From Pseudovirgaria hyperparasitica (taxonomy: Eukaryota), in assembly GCA_010093815.1 (NCBI GenBank), contig ML996576.1: a DNA stretch of 64,000 bases; one strand, given 5' to 3'. Positions 3,452-63,914 of the stretch are shown piece by piece (positions within the stretch are counted from its first letter, which is position 1; every line of letters begins with the position of its first letter). The translations under genes and the position numbers were made by a program. The notes beneath the pieces were generated by a model. The model saw nothing but the letters and a program-made list of their open reading frames with translations, did not search any database and was not told the DNA's origin.

Positions 3452-4579
3452 CTACTTCTTTGGCCGAACAGCCCCACTCCTCTGATCCTCCGTATTCTTC
3501 AACAAGGGCCTCAAAGAGTCTTTCTGAACTCGCTCCCACAATGACCCTTTACCATCTTCACGCCCCTTCTCATCCTCTTTACGAAACCACTCCTCGGCCG
3601 TCCTGATCCTTTCTGGATGGATCTCGTCTAACAACGCATAATCTCTCTTTATCAGCGGGTGCTCACCTCCACTTGCCTGCCACACACGCCAAAACCCGGT
3701 AAAATTATCTCTCATCGTCATCACCGCCGGATCGTCCACACTCGTGGCATATCCCGTAGGCAGATCCGTCGCCCTTGCCATCGGTCCCTCGCGCCAATAC
3801 TCCTCAAACTCCGTCTCAACATACACCGCTGGATGCCCAGTCACCGTCTCGAAACCCTTCGCGAGATCCTCATATCGCAGGTGCCCAATCGCAACACCAA
3901 GATCCATCCCATCCGCCCTCTCCTCATTTGCAAACAACCAGCACACATACACCCCACAATCCTCCAGCGCAACATGCGCCACCGCCCCGTTTCCATCCAT
4001 ACTCGCCGGCACCCGCCACGTCACCACCCCATCCTCCACCTGCGGCGTCATCAGCGTGCCTGCCGCAATCACCATCTCCATATACGGCCCAGTCGTAAAC
4101 AGCGCCGCCCTCATCCCCTTCTCCCTCACCGCCGCACTCGCTCTCTGCGTCAATATCCAGCTCCCCACCCGCCCCTTGCCATCATAATGTCCGCTCCGAA
4201 TCTCCGCCCGAAACCCACTCATCGCATGCACATACTCCAGGTTGCCCCACACAAACATCTTGACCCCCTCCGCTAGTGCAATCTCCCAGGTGCGGATCCC
4301 CCAGTAGAGTTCGCCGGCCTCGCCGACGTTGAAACCGTCGATGTTGATGAATGCGCCGTGTGCGCCGCGCATGCCGCTGCGAAGAGAGGTCTCGGAGGTG
4401 AATGTGCCCTCATGTAGTGTCGTGTTGGGCAGGGCGAGGAGAGATTGGGCGCGTGGGGAGGTCGGGGTACGGGTGAGGACACGAAGGGTGTATAGGTTAG
4501 TGTGGGCGAGGGCATGGACGATAGGGAGGCCTTGGGCACCGGTGCCGCCGACGACGAAGATTATGGGCAGAGGTGACAT
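3452..4579 (-). CDS. NmrA-like NAD(P)-binding protein
   Basis: Rossmann start IFVVGGTGAQG, RVLTR, GHYDGKGRV, LFTTGPYMEM. Likely ATG at 4579, single exon. Confidence 0.88.
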   Translation of the reverse strand: MSPLPIIFVVGGTGAQGLPIVHALAHTNLYTLRVLTRTPTSPRAQSLLALPNTTLHEGTFTSETSLRSGMRGAHGAFINIDGFNVGEAGELYWGIRTWEIALAEGVKMFVWGNLEYVHAMSGFRAEIRSGHYDGKGRVGSWILTQRASAAVREKGMRAALFTTGPYMEMVIAAGTLMTPQVEDGVVTWRVPASMDGNGAVAHVALEDCGVYVCWLFANEERADGMDLGVAIGHLRYEDLAKGFETVTGHPAVYVETEFEEYWREGPMARATDLPTGYATSVDDPAVMTMRDNFTGFWRVWQASGGEHPLIKRDYALLDEIHPERIRTAEEWFRKEDEKGREDGKGSLWERVQKDSLRPLLKNTEDQRSGAVRPKK

Positions 4580-5441
4580 TGCGTGGTACAGGATTGGTAT
4601 GGAATTGTTATGGTTGATAATATGGTCGGTTATATCTCTTTGAATCTTAAAATGGAGAGGTGTTCCGGAGTGGAAGATGGACGATGGCAATCGAAGAGCT
4701 GAAGTAGCGGGGCTGCATTATATGCATCTGGAACTCATACGATGGATGTAGGCACAAGCTTGAACTTCGTATCCATGCATGTTCATACTAATCACAACCA
4801 CATGAATTGCAAGATTGGCATACTAATCAGACCCATCGACGCAACACATGTTCGGCCGTAAGTCCCCATGATGCCTACAGATGGACATCTGTACAGCTTA
4901 GGAAGCTTCATTCGGAGCTTTGGCCTCTATATTCTTCTCGTGTATCTAATCTGCACTCACTCGGTATTCCAGGTGTTGAGTAATCTGTCTTGCCATATGC
5001 AGTGCTACCCGTGGGTGTTGCTTACTATTCCTAAACGCCGGGGATTACAACCCAAACGCATCTTGTACGATGTTTGACAAATTCAGCCCGAGGCTAGAGA
5101 CTATTATCATATGGCATGGGCGAGATAGGACTTTGGGCTCAACCCGAAAAATCAATATTTGATGAAACAGAATTGAGCGCAGTGAGAGAGGCTAGGACGT
5201 AGGAGGTGAGGAGTATGAGTATGTATGAGGTGGCGCATAGATCAGATGTTGTAAGTGGTAGTGCCCTTTATGGACATCCTGTTTATAAGGTAAATTATGT
5301 ATTGCTATATACAGGAAAAACAGTCGGTGGACACACAAAGGATGATAGAACACTCTTGTACACACTGTTTTCACTCAAGATCTGCCCTATTCAGACTCGA
5401 GGAGCAGTACCCAAGGGATCTGCTGTGGAACTTACACAAAC

Positions 5442-6158
5442 TCAATAATGTTTACACTTCAACCTCTTAGATGGCTCCCGCCGCCTTCTCCAGCAAAAAT
5501 TGTCGTTGTCCCAAGTTGTATAACCGTAGGATGCCTTCCATGGCTCCATGGCGAAATAACCCGCATTGTTCCCGCACTTGTACTTCACTGCGGCCATCAT
5601 GAGTACAAGGTCCTCGGGATGGATGGTCTGTCCACAGCCATAGTCACAGGCAAATGCTTTAGCTTCGGCATAACGGAAATCCACTCTGCGTTTGAATTCT
5701 GTCCCATTATGTCCAAACAATGCTGCCCACTTGAGTGTCCTATTGACAGCGTTCATGATCTGGAATTCATCAAGTCTTTGCTTCTCGCATCGAACGTATC
5801 CATCTTGTAGATGTCGGGGTAGCCTCCAGTGGTCAAATACGTGTGTGAATTCCCTCCAGAGAGCGGTGCTGTCTTCTGCAGCGAATGCATCGTAGAGTGC
5901 CAACGCCATGCGTTTGGGGCGATGGGCAATGTTGCGAAGATATTGTCTGAAATCTTGGTATACTCCGTGCGCCCATTGGCCGGCGACTTGGTTCCATGAT
6001 CTGGAGGCGCTTTCCCATGACTCCATGGAGTCTGCCAAGTAGTCGGCGCCCTCCGCCCATAAGTCGTGGGGCCCGGCGGGAGGAACGGGTTCGCGGGGAG
6101 CGGCGACGACTATGCCGCTGACGGCCGTCATAGCAATGAGAGTGTTTAAAACCCGCAT
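5442..6158 (-). CDS. Secreted protein with C-terminal Cys-containing domain, unknown function
   Basis: 238-aa ORF with signal-peptide-like MRVLNTLIAMTAVSGIVVAAP. C-terminal AFACDYGCGQT...KCGNNAGYF...WKASYG...FC pattern. TATA-like TATAAA on the minus strand near 6230. Confidence 0.75.
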   Translation of the reverse strand: MRVLNTLIAMTAVSGIVVAAPREPVPPAGPHDLWAEGADYLADSMESWESASRSWNQVAGQWAHGVYQDFRQYLRNIAHRPKRMALALYDAFAAEDSTALWREFTHVFDHWRLPRHLQDGYVRCEKQRLDEFQIMNAVNRTLKWAALFGHNGTEFKRRVDFRYAEAKAFACDYGCGQTIHPEDLVLMMAAVKYKCGNNAGYFAMEPWKASYGYTTWDNDNFCWRRRREPSKRLKCKHY

Positions 6159-61926: not shown

Positions 61927-62163
61927 GGAAGAGGCATATCAGGGGACTTGCGCAAAATGTATGAACCCAGTTTGGGGGTGTTTGTTGTGGGTTTGTCGTC
62001 GGGCTAGAATGGCGTTTGTGAAGATGGTTCATGGATGGGCTTATGGTATTGGGCAAAAATGAAACAATCGTTGATGTGGAGAGGAGGAGGAGGGGCGGGT
62101 ATGGTATGGTATGGTATTGTATTGTATGGTATCATTTGGCACGATACGATACGCCATCTCCCG

Positions 62164-63124
62164 TCACATTGTGTAGAACCTATCGCCAAAGTCACCCAGG
62201 CCTGGCACGATGTAGCTACGGTCGTGTCAGTTGGAGTTGGCGCAGAACATTTGGGAGAGGGTGGGGCAGATGTATAGTAACAAAGACTCACTTCTTCTCG
62301 TTCAACCCCTCATCTACAAAGGCAGTCACGACGCGCAGCTTCGGAAACTGCTGGGCAAAGTTCCTGGCGCCCTCGGGACTGGCTATCAGGTTCAGGAACA
62401 GTATGCGTTCCTCGGGCACGCCTCTCGACTTGAGCACATCCACCGCCATCAACGCGGATCCACCTGCAGAGAGAGAGAGAGTAGTCAGTCCCACTCAGCT
62501 CCTACAAGCATCTTCACACACACATATACATCCACAGCACTAACCTGTAGCCAGCATCGGATCAAGCAAGAGCACCCATCGATCCGCAATATCCTCCGGC
62601 AGCTTGTCGTAGAACAGCTTCGGCTTGGCCGTCTCCTCGTCGCGCTGGATCAGGATCTTGCCGATGCGCACCGACCGGCAGCAGTCGCGCAGCCCTTGCT
62701 CCATGGACTCGCCCGCCCGCATGATGGAGACGCCGCAGATCTTGCCCTCGAACTTGACGCCCGAGTAGGTCCGGCCGACGGGCGTGGTGATGGTGTGCTC
62801 GATGACGGGGAGGTGGTTGAGGCCTTCCTCGACGAGGAGCCGGATGATGCGGTTGGAGTAGAAGATGAAGTCGGCGCGCCCGGTGTCTTTGTCGCGGATC
62901 ATGCTGGAGCTGCTGTCAGAGAGAGGGGGAGGACTGGCAGAGCGTGTAGCTTCGGGAGGGACTTACGTCAGGAGCGCGATCAATTGGGGCGTCTGGGGCA
63001 GGATATGGACGTTTTCGTGCGGGATCTCTGTCGAGACGGTGGCGGTGGGCTTCATGGTTGCGGGACGGTATTCAGGTCCGACGCATTGCGAGGGGGGTTT
63101 CTGGGATGCTTCGTTCGACGACAT
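62164..63124 (-). CDS. FUR1: Uracil phosphoribosyltransferase
   Basis: [42 protein letters not shown] motif [13 protein letters not shown] and [16 protein letters not shown]. Introns 62904-62966, 62464-62544 and 62216-62291. Confidence 0.96.
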
Positions 63125-63914
63125 GGTGGGGGTTTTGGGACTGTTTTGTAATTCAGATGAGAGGGGCTTGTCACGGCAGCAAAGAAGAGTGGTGAATGAA
63201 CGTTCGGGAGAGCGCCACGTGGGAGACGATTCAGAAGACGGGTGAGGGCAACACTGTGTTGATATATACACAATAGTATCGTGAACGGAGCTCGCCGTGG
63301 TGGTGGAAGGTCTCTGTATGGAAGCTCGCACGCGACAGAGCGCTGTGCGGCGCAAGCATCCACAATGTGAGACCAATGAGAGTGGATGAATTGTGTGGAA
63401 GTCGGTACCTTATTTGGCAGGCGGTGAATGTCTCCAGATGAAGTTGAGCGGCAGAATCGATTAGACCAATAGGACACCGACGTCACTGCAGGGACCAGCA
63501 GACCCTTCTCCTGTCGTCACTAACTACCTCTATTATTGCCTGTGCCACAAACTCACAAGCCACACTTGCTCGGCTTGTTTTCAATATACTGATCCGTCCG
63601 TCATTGTCGCATTGACTTTCTTTAGCAACTCAAACTTCACTTCACTTCCTCTCTTCATATAACTACCCCGAATCCTGCACACTACTATCACCCGGACACA
63701 CTCTCTCCCACTTGACATATCTGCAAACAATTCTCACCCTCTCAACGCCCTTCCAGCATAATCTGCGCTTTCTCCACCCCCCCCGCCTCAGTCCGCACAC
63801 CGCATCCCGACGCGCCACGTCCACGTCCACAAACCGACTCAACAGCAGAAGAACAAATGTCGCCGACAGACAATCCCGGGACAATCACACTATAAAGAGT
63901 CTCCCTGAACTCAT

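Follow-up and report, generated by a model that had tools for sequence, protein, structure and literature searches.

Fungal genes carry an intragenic nucleotide polarity, with a C bias at their 5' ends, a G bias at their 3' ends and intermediate values in the middle (McLean & Tirosh, BMC Genomics 2011, PMC3315797). The description covers about 60 fungi, many Pezizomycotina among them, and the skew reaches promoters and 3' UTRs, 4-fold degenerate sites and amino-acid usage. The compositional blocks analysed here come from a single 64-kb window, the whole stretch of 64,000 nucleotides on contig ML996576.1 of Pseudovirgaria hyperparasitica, a filamentous ascomycete of the Dothideomycetes. They are very probably this same polarity. 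An earlier sequence-only reading of the window did not recognise the pattern as a standard feature, whereas it had already been published for fungi (PMC3315797).

The resemblance extends to several details. As in the survey of McLean & Tirosh (PMC3315797), the window combines a 5' C bias, a 3' G bias and an intermediate middle; the skew enters promoters or 5' UTRs and 3' UTRs and is present at 4-fold sites; amino-acid usage is shifted at protein ends; the 3' maximum lies near the stop codon and not past it; and the skew varies between genes, in the survey with only a weak correlation with expression. However, the published ramps are gradual averages over genes, while single window genes have near-saturated, step-like domains. 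The published AT skew is flat, whereas the T/A component flips in window genes, and degenerate and non-degenerate sites are of similar strength in the survey, whereas the effect at 4-fold sites in the window is twice that at codon positions 1 and 2. The 3' ends of window genes are also strongly G-rich (G 0.51), whereas 29 SARAF orthologue CDSs of other fungi, pooled, are not at theirs (G 0.22, C 0.19). Near-saturation, step-like switches, mirror symmetry and the T/A component are what is unusual in the window genes.

Related skews have been described outside this framework. In plants and fungi, C exceeds G on the sense strand at the TSS (Fujimori et al. 2005, PMC555766), and the window shares this sense-strand C excess around the transcript start; the peak, as described there, is restricted to the TSS, whereas the window has a reversed 3' domain. 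In mammals, transcription-associated strand asymmetry, and CpG-island GC skew and R-loops (Ginno et al. 2012, 2013; PMC4911931), also place skew at the ends of transcription units, and a G/T excess on the non-template strand is common to mammals and the 3' domains of the window. However, mammalian 5' ends are sense G-rich in that account, opposite in sign to the 5' domains found here, and the window has neither CpG depletion nor a CpG-island context (CpG obs/exp of 1.11 inside skewed runs). In grass genes, third-position C/G skew varies with the distance from the ATG and with GC3 class (Tatarinova et al. 2010, PMC2895627), as in the window, but the CG3 skew in that work ranges from about 0.05 to -0.1, compared with -0.49 / +0.45 in the window, and sign-reversing domains are a feature of the window and not of the CG3 gradients described there.

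The keto/amino axis and the direction of the jump, from C/A to G/T, are shared with replication-associated skew. In bacteria, this skew is a G/T excess on the leading strand, with jumps at origins. The window differs from it in scale (units of 0.5-1.3 kb versus tens of kb or more), in amplitude and in how strictly the units coincide with single genes.

Skewed blocks in the window

The sequence-only reading had listed 11 blocks changing from C/A-rich to G/T-rich along the + strand, and these are real. GC skew is negative in the left halves (-0.20 to -0.61) and positive in the right halves (+0.26 to +0.68) of 11/11 blocks, whose GC content is 0.51-0.66. T-A skew over all sites is weaker than GC skew; its sign is negative in 10/11 left halves and positive in 8/11 right halves. 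A scan for keto/amino runs (151-nt window, |keto-amino| > 0.22, length >= 150 nt) returned 23 runs totalling 6811 nt. The same scan returned 0 runs from 50 mononucleotide shuffles; from 50 shuffles of 30-nt blocks it returned 0.94 runs on average and 3 at most.

Independence of gene orientation was confirmed as well. In + and - genes, the sense strand changes from C/A-rich (5' end) to G/T-rich (3' end), and genes of either orientation look alike because this pattern is its own reverse complement. The 11 blocks map to 10 genes; each block lies on one short, GC-rich gene, and most span its transcription unit (in this analysis, the CDS model plus flanks). By appearance, the skewed genes are grouped where GC content is high, at 24.3-31 kb and 49.3-64 kb.

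Genes under the blocks

A single-exon NmrA-like gene (3452..4579, - strand; Pfam NmrA 2.5e-21, no internal stops) underlies the block 3650/4310/4700 (start/switch/end). Its sense strand is C/A-rich over the 5' flank and up to ~300 nt into the CDS and G/T-rich after, with a one-step switch at CDS nt 306 and a 4-fold GC skew of -0.49 (5'), +0.88 (middle) and +0.70 (3'). The CMAS-type methyltransferase gene (approximate CDS 13254..14416, + strand; Pfam CMAS and methyltransferase domains in two + ORFs) has one intron of inexact placement; its 3' half is the block 13800/14150/14450, and its end skews are -0.11 / +0.39.

The block at 24300..25460 (+ strand) comprises the unassigned ORF 24407-24973, which lies within the C-rich part and has a weak, sub-threshold Pfam match, and a 440-nt G/T-rich stretch at 25016-25459 (GC skew +0.70) that may be the 3' UTR of this ORF or unannotated exons. 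The 200-nt flanks of the ORF have skews of -0.62 and +0.56. Beside it, a 361-aa ORF with an uncertain start codon (25608..26693, - strand; block 25600/25950/26560) had no match in a Pfam search, and its G/T-ending synonymous sites rise from 8% in CDS nt 297-735 to 79% beyond. A putative Zn2Cys6-type regulator (27585..29039, - strand) was assigned by eye from its Cys pattern and has an in-frame intron at 28893-28970; the unspliced ORF had no Pfam match. The block 27590/27900/28060 covers only the 3' end of this gene and an internal reversed island. The + strand end skews are -0.64 / +0.33, and the synonymous keto fraction steps from 0.35 to 0.10 at CDS nt 960 and on to 0.91 at nt 1095. The Kae1/TsaD gene (approximately 30267..31340, - strand, at least two exons; Pfam TsaD 9.1e-45 and 3.1e-26 in two - ORFs) contributes its 3' exon as the block 30350/30800/30960, with a sense skew of -0.13 (5') and +0.52 (3').

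Two blocks (50600/51070/51290 and 51310/51580/51840) lie in one Cwc2-like splicing factor gene (50634..51983, + strand; Pfam Torus 1.6e-42, spliced frame open), in which exons 50634-51276 and 51385-51983 are separated by a GTGAGT...ACAG intron (51277-51384). The skew is reset within this intron at ~51300, and the C/A-ending synonymous fraction reads 0.89, 0.80 and 0.34 before it and 0.81, 0.09 and 0.48 after it. The neighbouring SARAF (DUF1183) gene (52170..53210, - strand, single exon; Pfam SARAF 2.9e-90; block 52100/52920/53260) has a synonymous keto fraction of 0.02 in its initial 85 scored sites (to ~codon 91) and 0.74 thereafter, with + strand end skews of -0.61 / +0.62.

The Elf1 gene (61086..61926, + strand; Pfam Zn_ribbon_Elf1, spliced frame open with GT..AG introns) has four exons (61086-61088, 61166-61210, 61334-61472 and 61658-61926) and, with both flanks, forms the block 61000/61400/62120. 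Introns 1 and 2 have GC skews of -0.94 and -0.29 and T-A skews of -0.31 and -0.71, the T-A skew of intron 3 is +0.45, and the flanks have GC skews of -0.77 upstream and +0.53 downstream. Finally, the 5' two thirds of the uracil phosphoribosyltransferase (UPRT) gene (62164..63124, - strand; Pfam UPRTase 7.6e-47, spliced frame open; exons 63124-62967, 62903-62545, 62463-62292 and 62215-62164) correspond to the block 62500/62780/63150, with a 4-fold GC skew of -0.44 (5') and +0.16 (3').

Synonymous sites, introns and flanks

Synonymous counts were pooled from seven hand-built gene models, comparing the 5' 400 nt with the 3' 400 nt. At 4-fold sites the composition changes from A74 C278 G95 T38 to A49 C84 G222 T78, and at 2-fold sites from C140/T41 and A70/G58 to C68/T118 and A20/G159. 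Polarity by codon position is 0.45 (position 1), 0.50 (position 2), 0.88 (position 3) and 0.94 (4-fold sites). Introns and flanks follow: GC and T-A skews are -0.54 and -0.35 in 5'-proximal introns and -0.09 and +0.35 in 3'-proximal introns, and GC skew in the 120-nt CDS flanks is -0.38 upstream and +0.16 downstream. The earlier claim that third codon positions, introns and UTR flanks are affected therefore stands. An amino-acid origin, under which the skew was expected to vanish at such sites, is contradicted by its persistence there, and a footprint of mutation or repair is therefore more likely than a protein-level effect. In this part the strand-asymmetric mutation or repair process put forward by the sequence-only reading gains ground, but its centring on fixed sites does not.

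The 4-fold composition differs between 5' and 3' ends (chi2 171), whereas 5' ends do not differ from the complement of 3' ends (chi2 5.5, p = 0.14). This mirror symmetry of the two gene ends would fit one process acting on opposite strands. The T/A component also flips sign in strongly skewed genes.

Anchoring on gene ends

GC-skew polarity, taken as the right 300 nt minus the left 300 nt, is positive in 21/24 gene intervals (mean +0.41), including the long genes regarded as unaffected. This mean was never reached when intervals of the same lengths were placed at random 5000 times (null sd 0.068, maximum 0.257); the three intervals of opposite sign each have an uncertain gene model. [quoted passage not shown]

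The meta-profile around the ATG, from -200 to +300, reads -0.10, -0.25, -0.30, -0.25 and -0.15. Mid-gene values are ~0, the last 300 nt before the stop codon give +0.12, +0.23 and +0.21, and the profile falls to +0.06 beyond the stop and then to ~0. The skew is thus confined to ~300 nt from start and stop codons. GC-richer genes are more strongly skewed (rho 0.44, p = 0.03).

ADE5,7, which is truncated at the window edge, and HOM3, MDR1, BDP1 and BRE1 had been considered free of the pattern. With 300-nt ends, HOM3 (+0.29), the ABC transporter (+0.31), Bdp1 (+0.51), BRE1 (+0.27) and SNF2 (+0.33) share the polarity sign of the other genes, although more weakly, and the earlier contrast is only partly borne out. 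Domain structure at synonymous sites is absent in BRE1 and SNF2 (one-step 2*dLL 3.4 and 4.8).

The polarity is also found outside the window. A positive 4-fold polarity is present in 33 of 34 distinct SARAF orthologue CDSs taken from contigs of metagenomes; the mean skews are -0.43 (5') and +0.10 (3'), and several of these CDSs have the same run structure as the SARAF gene of the window.

Shape of the switches

One step is preferred to a linear ramp by AIC in 7/7 genes, by 7 to 82 units, and the one-step 2*dLL at synonymous sites is 24-154 in the seven skewed genes. The domains are plateaus of 300-800 nt with sharp inner edges, and in five genes the switch lies 273-420 nt into the CDS, off the block centres. 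The reverse flips, from G/T to C/A, fall in intergenic DNA or in one intron. A 60-nt profile and direct reading place an abrupt flip at 52000..52170, where the 3' ends of Cwc2 and SARAF converge, and a second at ~62100-62165, between Elf1 and UPRT. The Cwc2-like and putative Zn2Cys6 genes have an additional reversal within the gene at synonymous sites, which is not predicted by a simple two-end model.

Origin of the polarity

The blocks are probably best explained as the end-to-end polarity of short fungal genes, produced by a strand-asymmetric bias tied to the transcription unit. In these genes, C (and A) predominate on the sense strand from the 5' flank to a point roughly 270-420 nt into the CDS, and G (and T) predominate after the switch, or near the stop codon only in long genes, into the 3' flank. 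The switch is simply the point where the 5' regime yields to the 3' regime. The bias would be one of mutation or repair whose strand orientation is reversed between the two gene ends, and selection on the protein would resist it only in part. On balance a mutational cause seems somewhat favoured, and a tie to transcription is suggested, while no particular molecular route is more likely than not. Biased gene conversion and selection at the RNA or DNA level could also affect introns and synonymous sites.

Of the alternatives, selection for properties of the nucleic acid itself is the least improbable, though still unlikely. A C/A-only 5' region cannot self-pair, which would keep the leader and early CDS unstructured, and G-rich 3' ends would promote R-loops and pausing for termination. 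The pattern does track the pre-mRNA (exons, introns and flanks), and the folds of the native transcripts are slightly less stable than those of global dinucleotide shuffles (z = +2.0, +0.9 and +1.3). However, long genes also need initiation and termination, yet lack the domains. The fold-back function once offered as an alternative fails, as there is no specific 5'-3' complementarity relative to gradient-keeping shuffles (z = +1.1, -0.8 and +0.4), nor are there inverted repeats past short low-complexity matches. An adaptive variant, C avoidance at 3' ends or a "slow start" from scarce CTP, is discussed by McLean & Tirosh (PMC3315797), but CTP scarcity accounts for C avoidance alone, whereas 3' ends also avoid A (2-fold R sites are 89% G), T and G are both avoided at 5' ends, and the gene ends are mirror images.

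A recombination footprint on nucleosome-free gene-flanking DNA seems a little less probable still. Here, 5'-to-3' resection from intergenic breaks with deamination of the remaining 3' strand (C>T, A>G), or alternatively GC- and strand-biased heteroduplex repair, would leave the + strand C/A-rich in the gene end right of a break and G/T-rich in the gene end left of it. If breaks were at block edges, the polarity would agree with the established direction of resection; a symmetric process would suit the mirror symmetry, and the higher GC content of strongly skewed genes (and their apparent grouping) would also suit a recombination-linked cause. Resection and conversion tracts in yeast are of the order of the 300-800 nt domains. 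Against this, 3'-end skew in a still incomplete gene list is no weaker beside convergent intergenic regions, which have no promoter (mean +0.21, n = 10), than beside tandem ones (mean +0.16, n = 14; p = 0.70), promoter-like intergenic DNA is neutral and not at peak skew, the sharp-edged plateaus show no decay, and one flip lies inside a 108-nt intron.

The first proposal, a process acting in both directions from the switch point inside each block (recurrent break hot spots or replication starts), is now very improbable. The abruptness of the switches would fit, as would the C/A-to-G/T jump, which matches in polarity the jump at a replication origin, where the leading strand is G/T-rich. However, 60 kb holds at least 11 switches, each within one gene, a density far above that of origins. 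The 11 blocks on 10 genes are anchored at gene ends (-0.25/-0.30 in the 100 nt on each side of the ATG, +0.23/+0.21 over the last 200 nt ahead of the stop codon, ~0 elsewhere), the bias stays saturated to outer edges at the gene flanks without decaying away from the switch, and in five genes the switch is displaced from the block centre. Moreover, if the break were central, 5'-to-3' resection followed by deamination of the strand that survives would give the opposite polarity.

Least credible is a by-product of amino-acid composition or codon choice (P/T/S/H-rich N-termini, G/V/E/W-rich C-termini), which would fit the polarity of codon positions 1 and 2 and does drive some local islands, such as the SARAF proline run at 52520-52580, but is ruled out as sole cause by the skew of 4-fold sites, about twice that of those positions, and of introns and flanks. 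At the amino-acid level, the polarity of the window SARAF protein (0.82) lies above that of all 119 homologues (mean 0.22), and this looks like the protein following the DNA and not the reverse.

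Compositional Blocks as Fungal Gene Polarity

The sequence-only reading reported many blocks of ~0.5–1.3 kb, with eleven listed as examples, in which a C/A-rich left half gives way, at a switch point on the + strand, to a G/T-rich right half. These blocks are real and were well described. In 11/11 of the listed blocks the + strand GC skew lies between −0.20 and −0.61 on the left and between +0.26 and +0.68 on the right, at a GC content (0.51–0.66) about level with or higher than the window-wide 0.52. A threshold scan of the window returned 23 runs with strong keto (G/T) or amino (C/A) skew. 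Applied to 50 mononucleotide shuffles it gave 0 runs, and applied to 50 sequences with their 30-nt blocks shuffled it gave 0.94 on average and at most 3. The T/A part of the skew is weaker across all sites and clear at synonymous sites.

The pattern is the fungal gene polarity of McLean and Tirosh 2011 (PMC3315797) and has therefore already been published; the blocks constitute neither a new element nor a hot spot of a new class. Genes of about 60 fungi, many Pezizomycotina among them, show a C bias at the 5′ end and a G bias at the 3′ end, with intermediate values in the middle. This polarity reaches promoters and 3′ UTRs, is seen at 4-fold degenerate sites, shifts amino-acid usage at both protein ends and has its 3′ maximum at the stop codon, and its cause was left between mutational and adaptive hypotheses (PMC3315797). 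The 5′ excess of C over G had reportedly been described earlier in plants and fungi (Fujimori 2005, PMC555766). The skew at third codon positions in grasses (CG3 skew, PMC2895627) was rejected as an analogue, its reported amplitude being far smaller. The window thus yields a phenomenon rediscovered from raw sequence, with a cause open since 2011, and its interest is carried by the extreme, step-like and mirror-symmetric form and by the mechanism.

Anchoring of the Skew on Genes

The 11 listed blocks map to 10 genes. Across the 24 gene intervals tested window-wide, GC-skew polarity (skew of the right-hand 300 nt less that of the left-hand 300 nt) is positive in 21, with a mean of +0.41 although some of the models are approximate, a result reached by 0/5000 random placements. 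In the other three the ORF is short or uncertain, and one of them, 24407–24973, has flanks that are skewed as expected.

As in the published polarity, the sense strand is C-biased around the start codon and in the 5′ UTR: the skew over the 5′ 300 nt is negative in 22/24 genes, and the meta-profile stands at −0.25 from −100 to −1 and at −0.30 from +0 to +99 relative to the ATG (23/24 genes negative in the latter interval), becoming neutral more than 200 nt upstream. The G bias towards the stop codon is likewise present, the skew over the 3′ 300 nt being positive in 19/24 genes and the meta-profile rising, over the final 200 nt ahead of the stop, to +0.23 and +0.21 before vanishing 100 nt beyond it. 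The intermediate mid-gene skew is also reproduced, with a meta-profile of ~0 from +300 past the ATG until 300 nt ahead of the stop and mid-gene 4-fold skews of −0.09 in SNF2 and −0.08 in BRE1. The published description has a roughly uniform AT skew; here T–A polarity over the 24 genes is positive in 12 (mean +0.03, the same as random placement), and third-position T–A skew moves from −0.29 to +0.46 in the seven strongly skewed genes.

A gradient from 5′ C/A to 3′ G/T is its own reverse complement, which accounts for the orientation independence noted at the outset, and no fixed centre is needed. The reverse flips, from G/T to C/A, fall in spacers, including those at the convergent 3′ ends of Cwc2/SARAF and of Elf1/UPRT. 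Where a gene is less than about 1.4 kb long, its 5′ and 3′ regimes run into each other, and the block-like appearance results. The claim that long genes escape the pattern holds for amplitude and fails for sign: HOM3 (+0.29), the ABC gene (+0.31), Bdp1 (+0.51), BRE1 (+0.27) and SNF2 (+0.33) all share the common direction at a lower amplitude (+0.27 to +0.51).

Amplitude tracks gene GC (rho 0.44, p = 0.03); gene length was rejected as its determinant (rho 0.05). By eye, strongly polar genes seem grouped in the GC-richer intervals 24.3–31 kb and 49.3–64 kb, and weakly polar ones lie at 4800–13200, 14500–24000 and 31500–49000. The grouping of the strongly polar genes hints at a regional factor.

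Synonymous, Intron and Flank Sites

Spliced models were built and verified for five genes (NmrA-like, Cwc2, SARAF, Elf1 and UPRT), all with open frames and canonical intron ends, and two ORF-based models were added. At pooled 4-fold sites, the 5′ 400 nt contain A74 C278 G95 T38 and the 3′ 400 nt A49 C84 G222 T78, giving GC skews of −0.49 and +0.45 at the two ends. Among 2-fold codons, those ending in a pyrimidine go from 77% C (5′) to 37% C (3′), and those ending in a purine from 45% G to 89% G.

Polarity, here the 3′ skew less the 5′ skew, is 0.45 and 0.50 at the first and second codon positions but 0.88 at the third, and it reaches 0.94 at 4-fold sites. The skew is therefore not amino-acid driven, even if amino-acid usage is shifted, as it is in the published genomes: the amino-acid index polarity of SARAF (0.82) exceeds that of each of 119 homologues (mean 0.22).

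The published extension beyond the coding sequence is found as well. Four 5′-proximal introns, pooled, have a GC skew of −0.54 and a T–A skew of −0.35, three 3′-proximal introns have −0.09 and +0.35, and 120-nt flanks show a GC skew of −0.38 upstream of nine start codons and +0.16 downstream of stops. Base-by-base reading of Elf1 and UPRT gives a C/A-rich sense strand in the 5′ flank and in the exons and introns near the 5′ end, and a G/T-rich one in the 3′ exons, in intron 3 of Elf1 and intron 2 of UPRT, and in the Elf1 3′ flank. The loss of the skew at synonymous and non-coding sites had been named as the observation that would overturn the initial proposal; since the skew is kept there, this test does not refute it.

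SARAF Orthologues

Metagenome contigs were searched with a 22-sequence SARAF alignment, which returned 75 loci. Of these, 34 were used as distinct, complete single-ORF coding sequences of 840–1400 nt, the rest having no stop, no start near the match or an unsuitable length, or being exact duplicates. The 4-fold GC-skew polarity is positive in 33/34 orthologues (mean 5′ −0.43, 3′ +0.10), some of which are near-identical, so that the effective n is lower. The SARAF gene of the window (polarity 1.15) is exceeded by a single orthologue, L023 (1.32). With nearly all orthologues polar and this gene near the top, the kind of pattern is general and the lineage sits at its extreme.

Several of 10 inspected loci have the same run structure, with a switch near codons 85–125. 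Removal of five near-duplicates by hand left 29 orthologues, whose 3′ ends, when pooled, show no G-richness (A 0.31, C 0.19, G 0.22, T 0.28); 4-fold sites at the 3′ ends in the window have G at 0.51. The SARAF orthologues of two fungal metagenome contigs have domains nearly as extreme as those of the window, L023 with 4-fold skews of −0.85 and +0.47 and L075 with 35 consecutive codons ending in G or T.

Saturation, Steps and Resets

Six features go beyond the published description: near-saturation, step-like switches, mirror symmetry, the T/A flip in strongly skewed genes, resets inside genes, and the link of amplitude to gene GC noted above. In SARAF, the keto fraction is 0.02 over the first 85 scored synonymous sites (to ~codon 91), and nt 51561–51840 of Cwc2 are 91% G/T-ending. 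A one-step model fits better than a linear-logit ramp in 7/7 genes, by 7–82 AIC units, and in five of the seven the step lies 273–420 nt into the coding sequence. At 4-fold sites, the composition of the 5′ ends is indistinguishable from the complemented composition of the 3′ ends (p = 0.14).

Resets occur in two genes. In Cwc2 the bias forms two saw-teeth, and the flip between them (~51300) falls inside the 108-nt intron (51277–51384); within 51071–51560, synonymous sites are 66% G/T-ending before the intron and 81% C/A-ending after it, much as they would be at a gene border. One possible cause is a start within this intron, either internal or antisense. The putative Zn2Cys6 gene (27585..29039, − strand) contains a reversed island at 27900–28130, with 10% keto at synonymous sites (CDS nt 960 to 1095) beside a 91% keto run; the island overlaps in part a Thr/Pro-rich stretch.

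A stronger claim, which we put forward as a doubtful possibility, is that in this lineage the known polarity amounts to a near-saturating, domain-like recoding and not to a mild average trend, with stretches of 300–800 nt at 90–98% C/A synonymous sites on one strand, sharp edges, 5′ and 3′ domains that mirror each other exactly, and resets inside genes such as those of the Cwc2 intron and the putative Zn2Cys6 gene. If it were true, it would suggest a single strand-specific process working in opposite orientations from discrete entry points, in place of three "phases" of sense transcription. The entry points might be initiation zones, both sense and antisense, or else breaks in gene-flanking DNA, and such genes would offer a sharp natural assay for the mechanism.

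Possible Causes of the Skew

The skew is anchored on genes, affects sites free of protein constraint and leaves the two gene ends with matching compositions on opposite strands. We infer that it would best be explained by a bias of mutation or repair that is strand-asymmetric and linked to the transcription unit, in preference to selection on RNA and to a recombination footprint. The sequence-only reading had proposed a bidirectional mutation or repair process centred on fixed sites; its strand-asymmetric, non-protein character stands, and its fixed centres do not, given the gene anchoring, the plateaus and the density of switches.

The rival that we keep alive is a recombination footprint left by breaks in gene-flanking DNA. 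The link of amplitude to GC and the mirror symmetry speak for it, but intergenic DNA is neutral, the domains are plateaus, and the 3′ skew is no weaker beside promoter-less convergent spacers than beside tandem ones, which is a weak test because the gene list is incomplete (in this one window several models are approximate, and neighbour classes ignore unmodelled genes, e.g., at 54–58.4 kb). The mutation or repair bias is preferred on these three grounds. Hot spots restricted to promoters were rejected on the same equality of convergent and tandem 3′ sides, a weak test for the same incompleteness of the gene list.

Selection on RNA, including a ramp imposed by CTP scarcity, is less preferred. 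Such a ramp predicts avoidance of C alone, and the shifts in A/G and in C/T that accompany each other here do not follow from it; the domains are missing from the long genes of the same window, and no selected fold is found; for these reasons a mutation or repair bias is again favoured.

A central hot spot or origin at the switch is disfavoured by the excessive density of switches, the plateau shape and the gene anchoring. In the 60-nt skew profile the extremes lie near the block edges, and the plateaus reach the outer edges (in SARAF from the start of the gene) with no outward decay from the switch. A central break with resection and deamination would give the wrong sign, and a replication-origin skew jump was rejected, with 11 switches in 60 kb on 10 genes and reverse flips that are intergenic or in an intron, not on the scale of replicons.

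The fold-back alternative raised initially is not borne out. Inverted repeats in four regions consist of just 14–38-nt low-complexity matches (71–93%), and minimum free energies indicate no extra stability relative to shuffles (z = +2.0, +0.9 and +1.3 for global and +1.1, −0.8 and +0.4 for gradient-preserving shuffles, 25 each). An inverted repeat or fold-back element is thus rejected, the halves not being reverse complements and the fold not unusually stable.

Repeat-induced point mutation (RIP), whose product would be AT-enriched and TpA-rich, is rejected by the block GC and a TpA observed/expected ratio of 0.65, and deamination of 5-methylcytosine is unlikely because CpG is not depleted (1.11, against 0.95 in controls). 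Both dinucleotide ratios were taken over 21/23 skewed runs, leaving out two low-GC runs (42990–43148 and 43643–43851).

Among the matches listed for later literature, no mechanistic resolution of fungal gene-body skew was found, the R-loop papers among them being on animals and yeast. A lineage near saturation, with step edges and mirror symmetry, is a good test bed for separating mutational, selective and recombinational causes.

Lineage, Open Frames and Local Repeats

The DNA of the window is nuclear and comes from a filamentous ascomycete, with GT..AG introns, CTAAC-like branch sites and typical housekeeping genes. An NCBI protein recorded under Pseudovirgaria hyperparasitica matches the unspliced BRE1 ORF at 96% identity across 94% of its length. 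Self-match aside, the best database relatives of BRE1 (40324–42183) and SARAF (52173–53210) reach 43–55% identity and come from Cryomyces, Lepidopterella, Coniosporium and lichen fungi. With the closest relatives just ~50–55% identical, the lineage is an isolated Dothideomycete, either poorly sampled or fast-evolving. Among the matches listed for literature naming Pseudovirgaria hyperparasitica, no title concerned base composition.

Extreme skew strips stop codons from several frames. At 3600–4300, 24400–25000, 27500–28000 and 50500–53300 this leaves both strands with long ORFs that overlap in sets of three to five, just one of each set being a real gene. Annotation of such genes is likely to meet numerous spurious open frames, along with protein termini that are low in complexity and strongly biased. 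The 4.4-kb interval 54000–58400 has kb-scale domains (C-rich at 54025–54322, G-rich at ~54800–56750, C-rich at 57200–58400) and 0 Pfam-supported ORFs of at least 110 aa, some of its ORFs being simple dipeptide repeats.

Short tandem repeats were seen at domain edges and in introns. GGCAT and CAGT repeats occupy 52060–52175, between Cwc2 and SARAF at a domain edge; GAC repeats occur in Elf1 intron 2 (61250–61295), and intron 3 of the same gene carries copies of a TTCAGTTCAATTCGG-like unit (61480–61570). Elsewhere, a glycoside hydrolase family 7 gene (cellobiohydrolase-type) with at least two exons lies at 9000–10700 on the − strand, and its polarity is weak.
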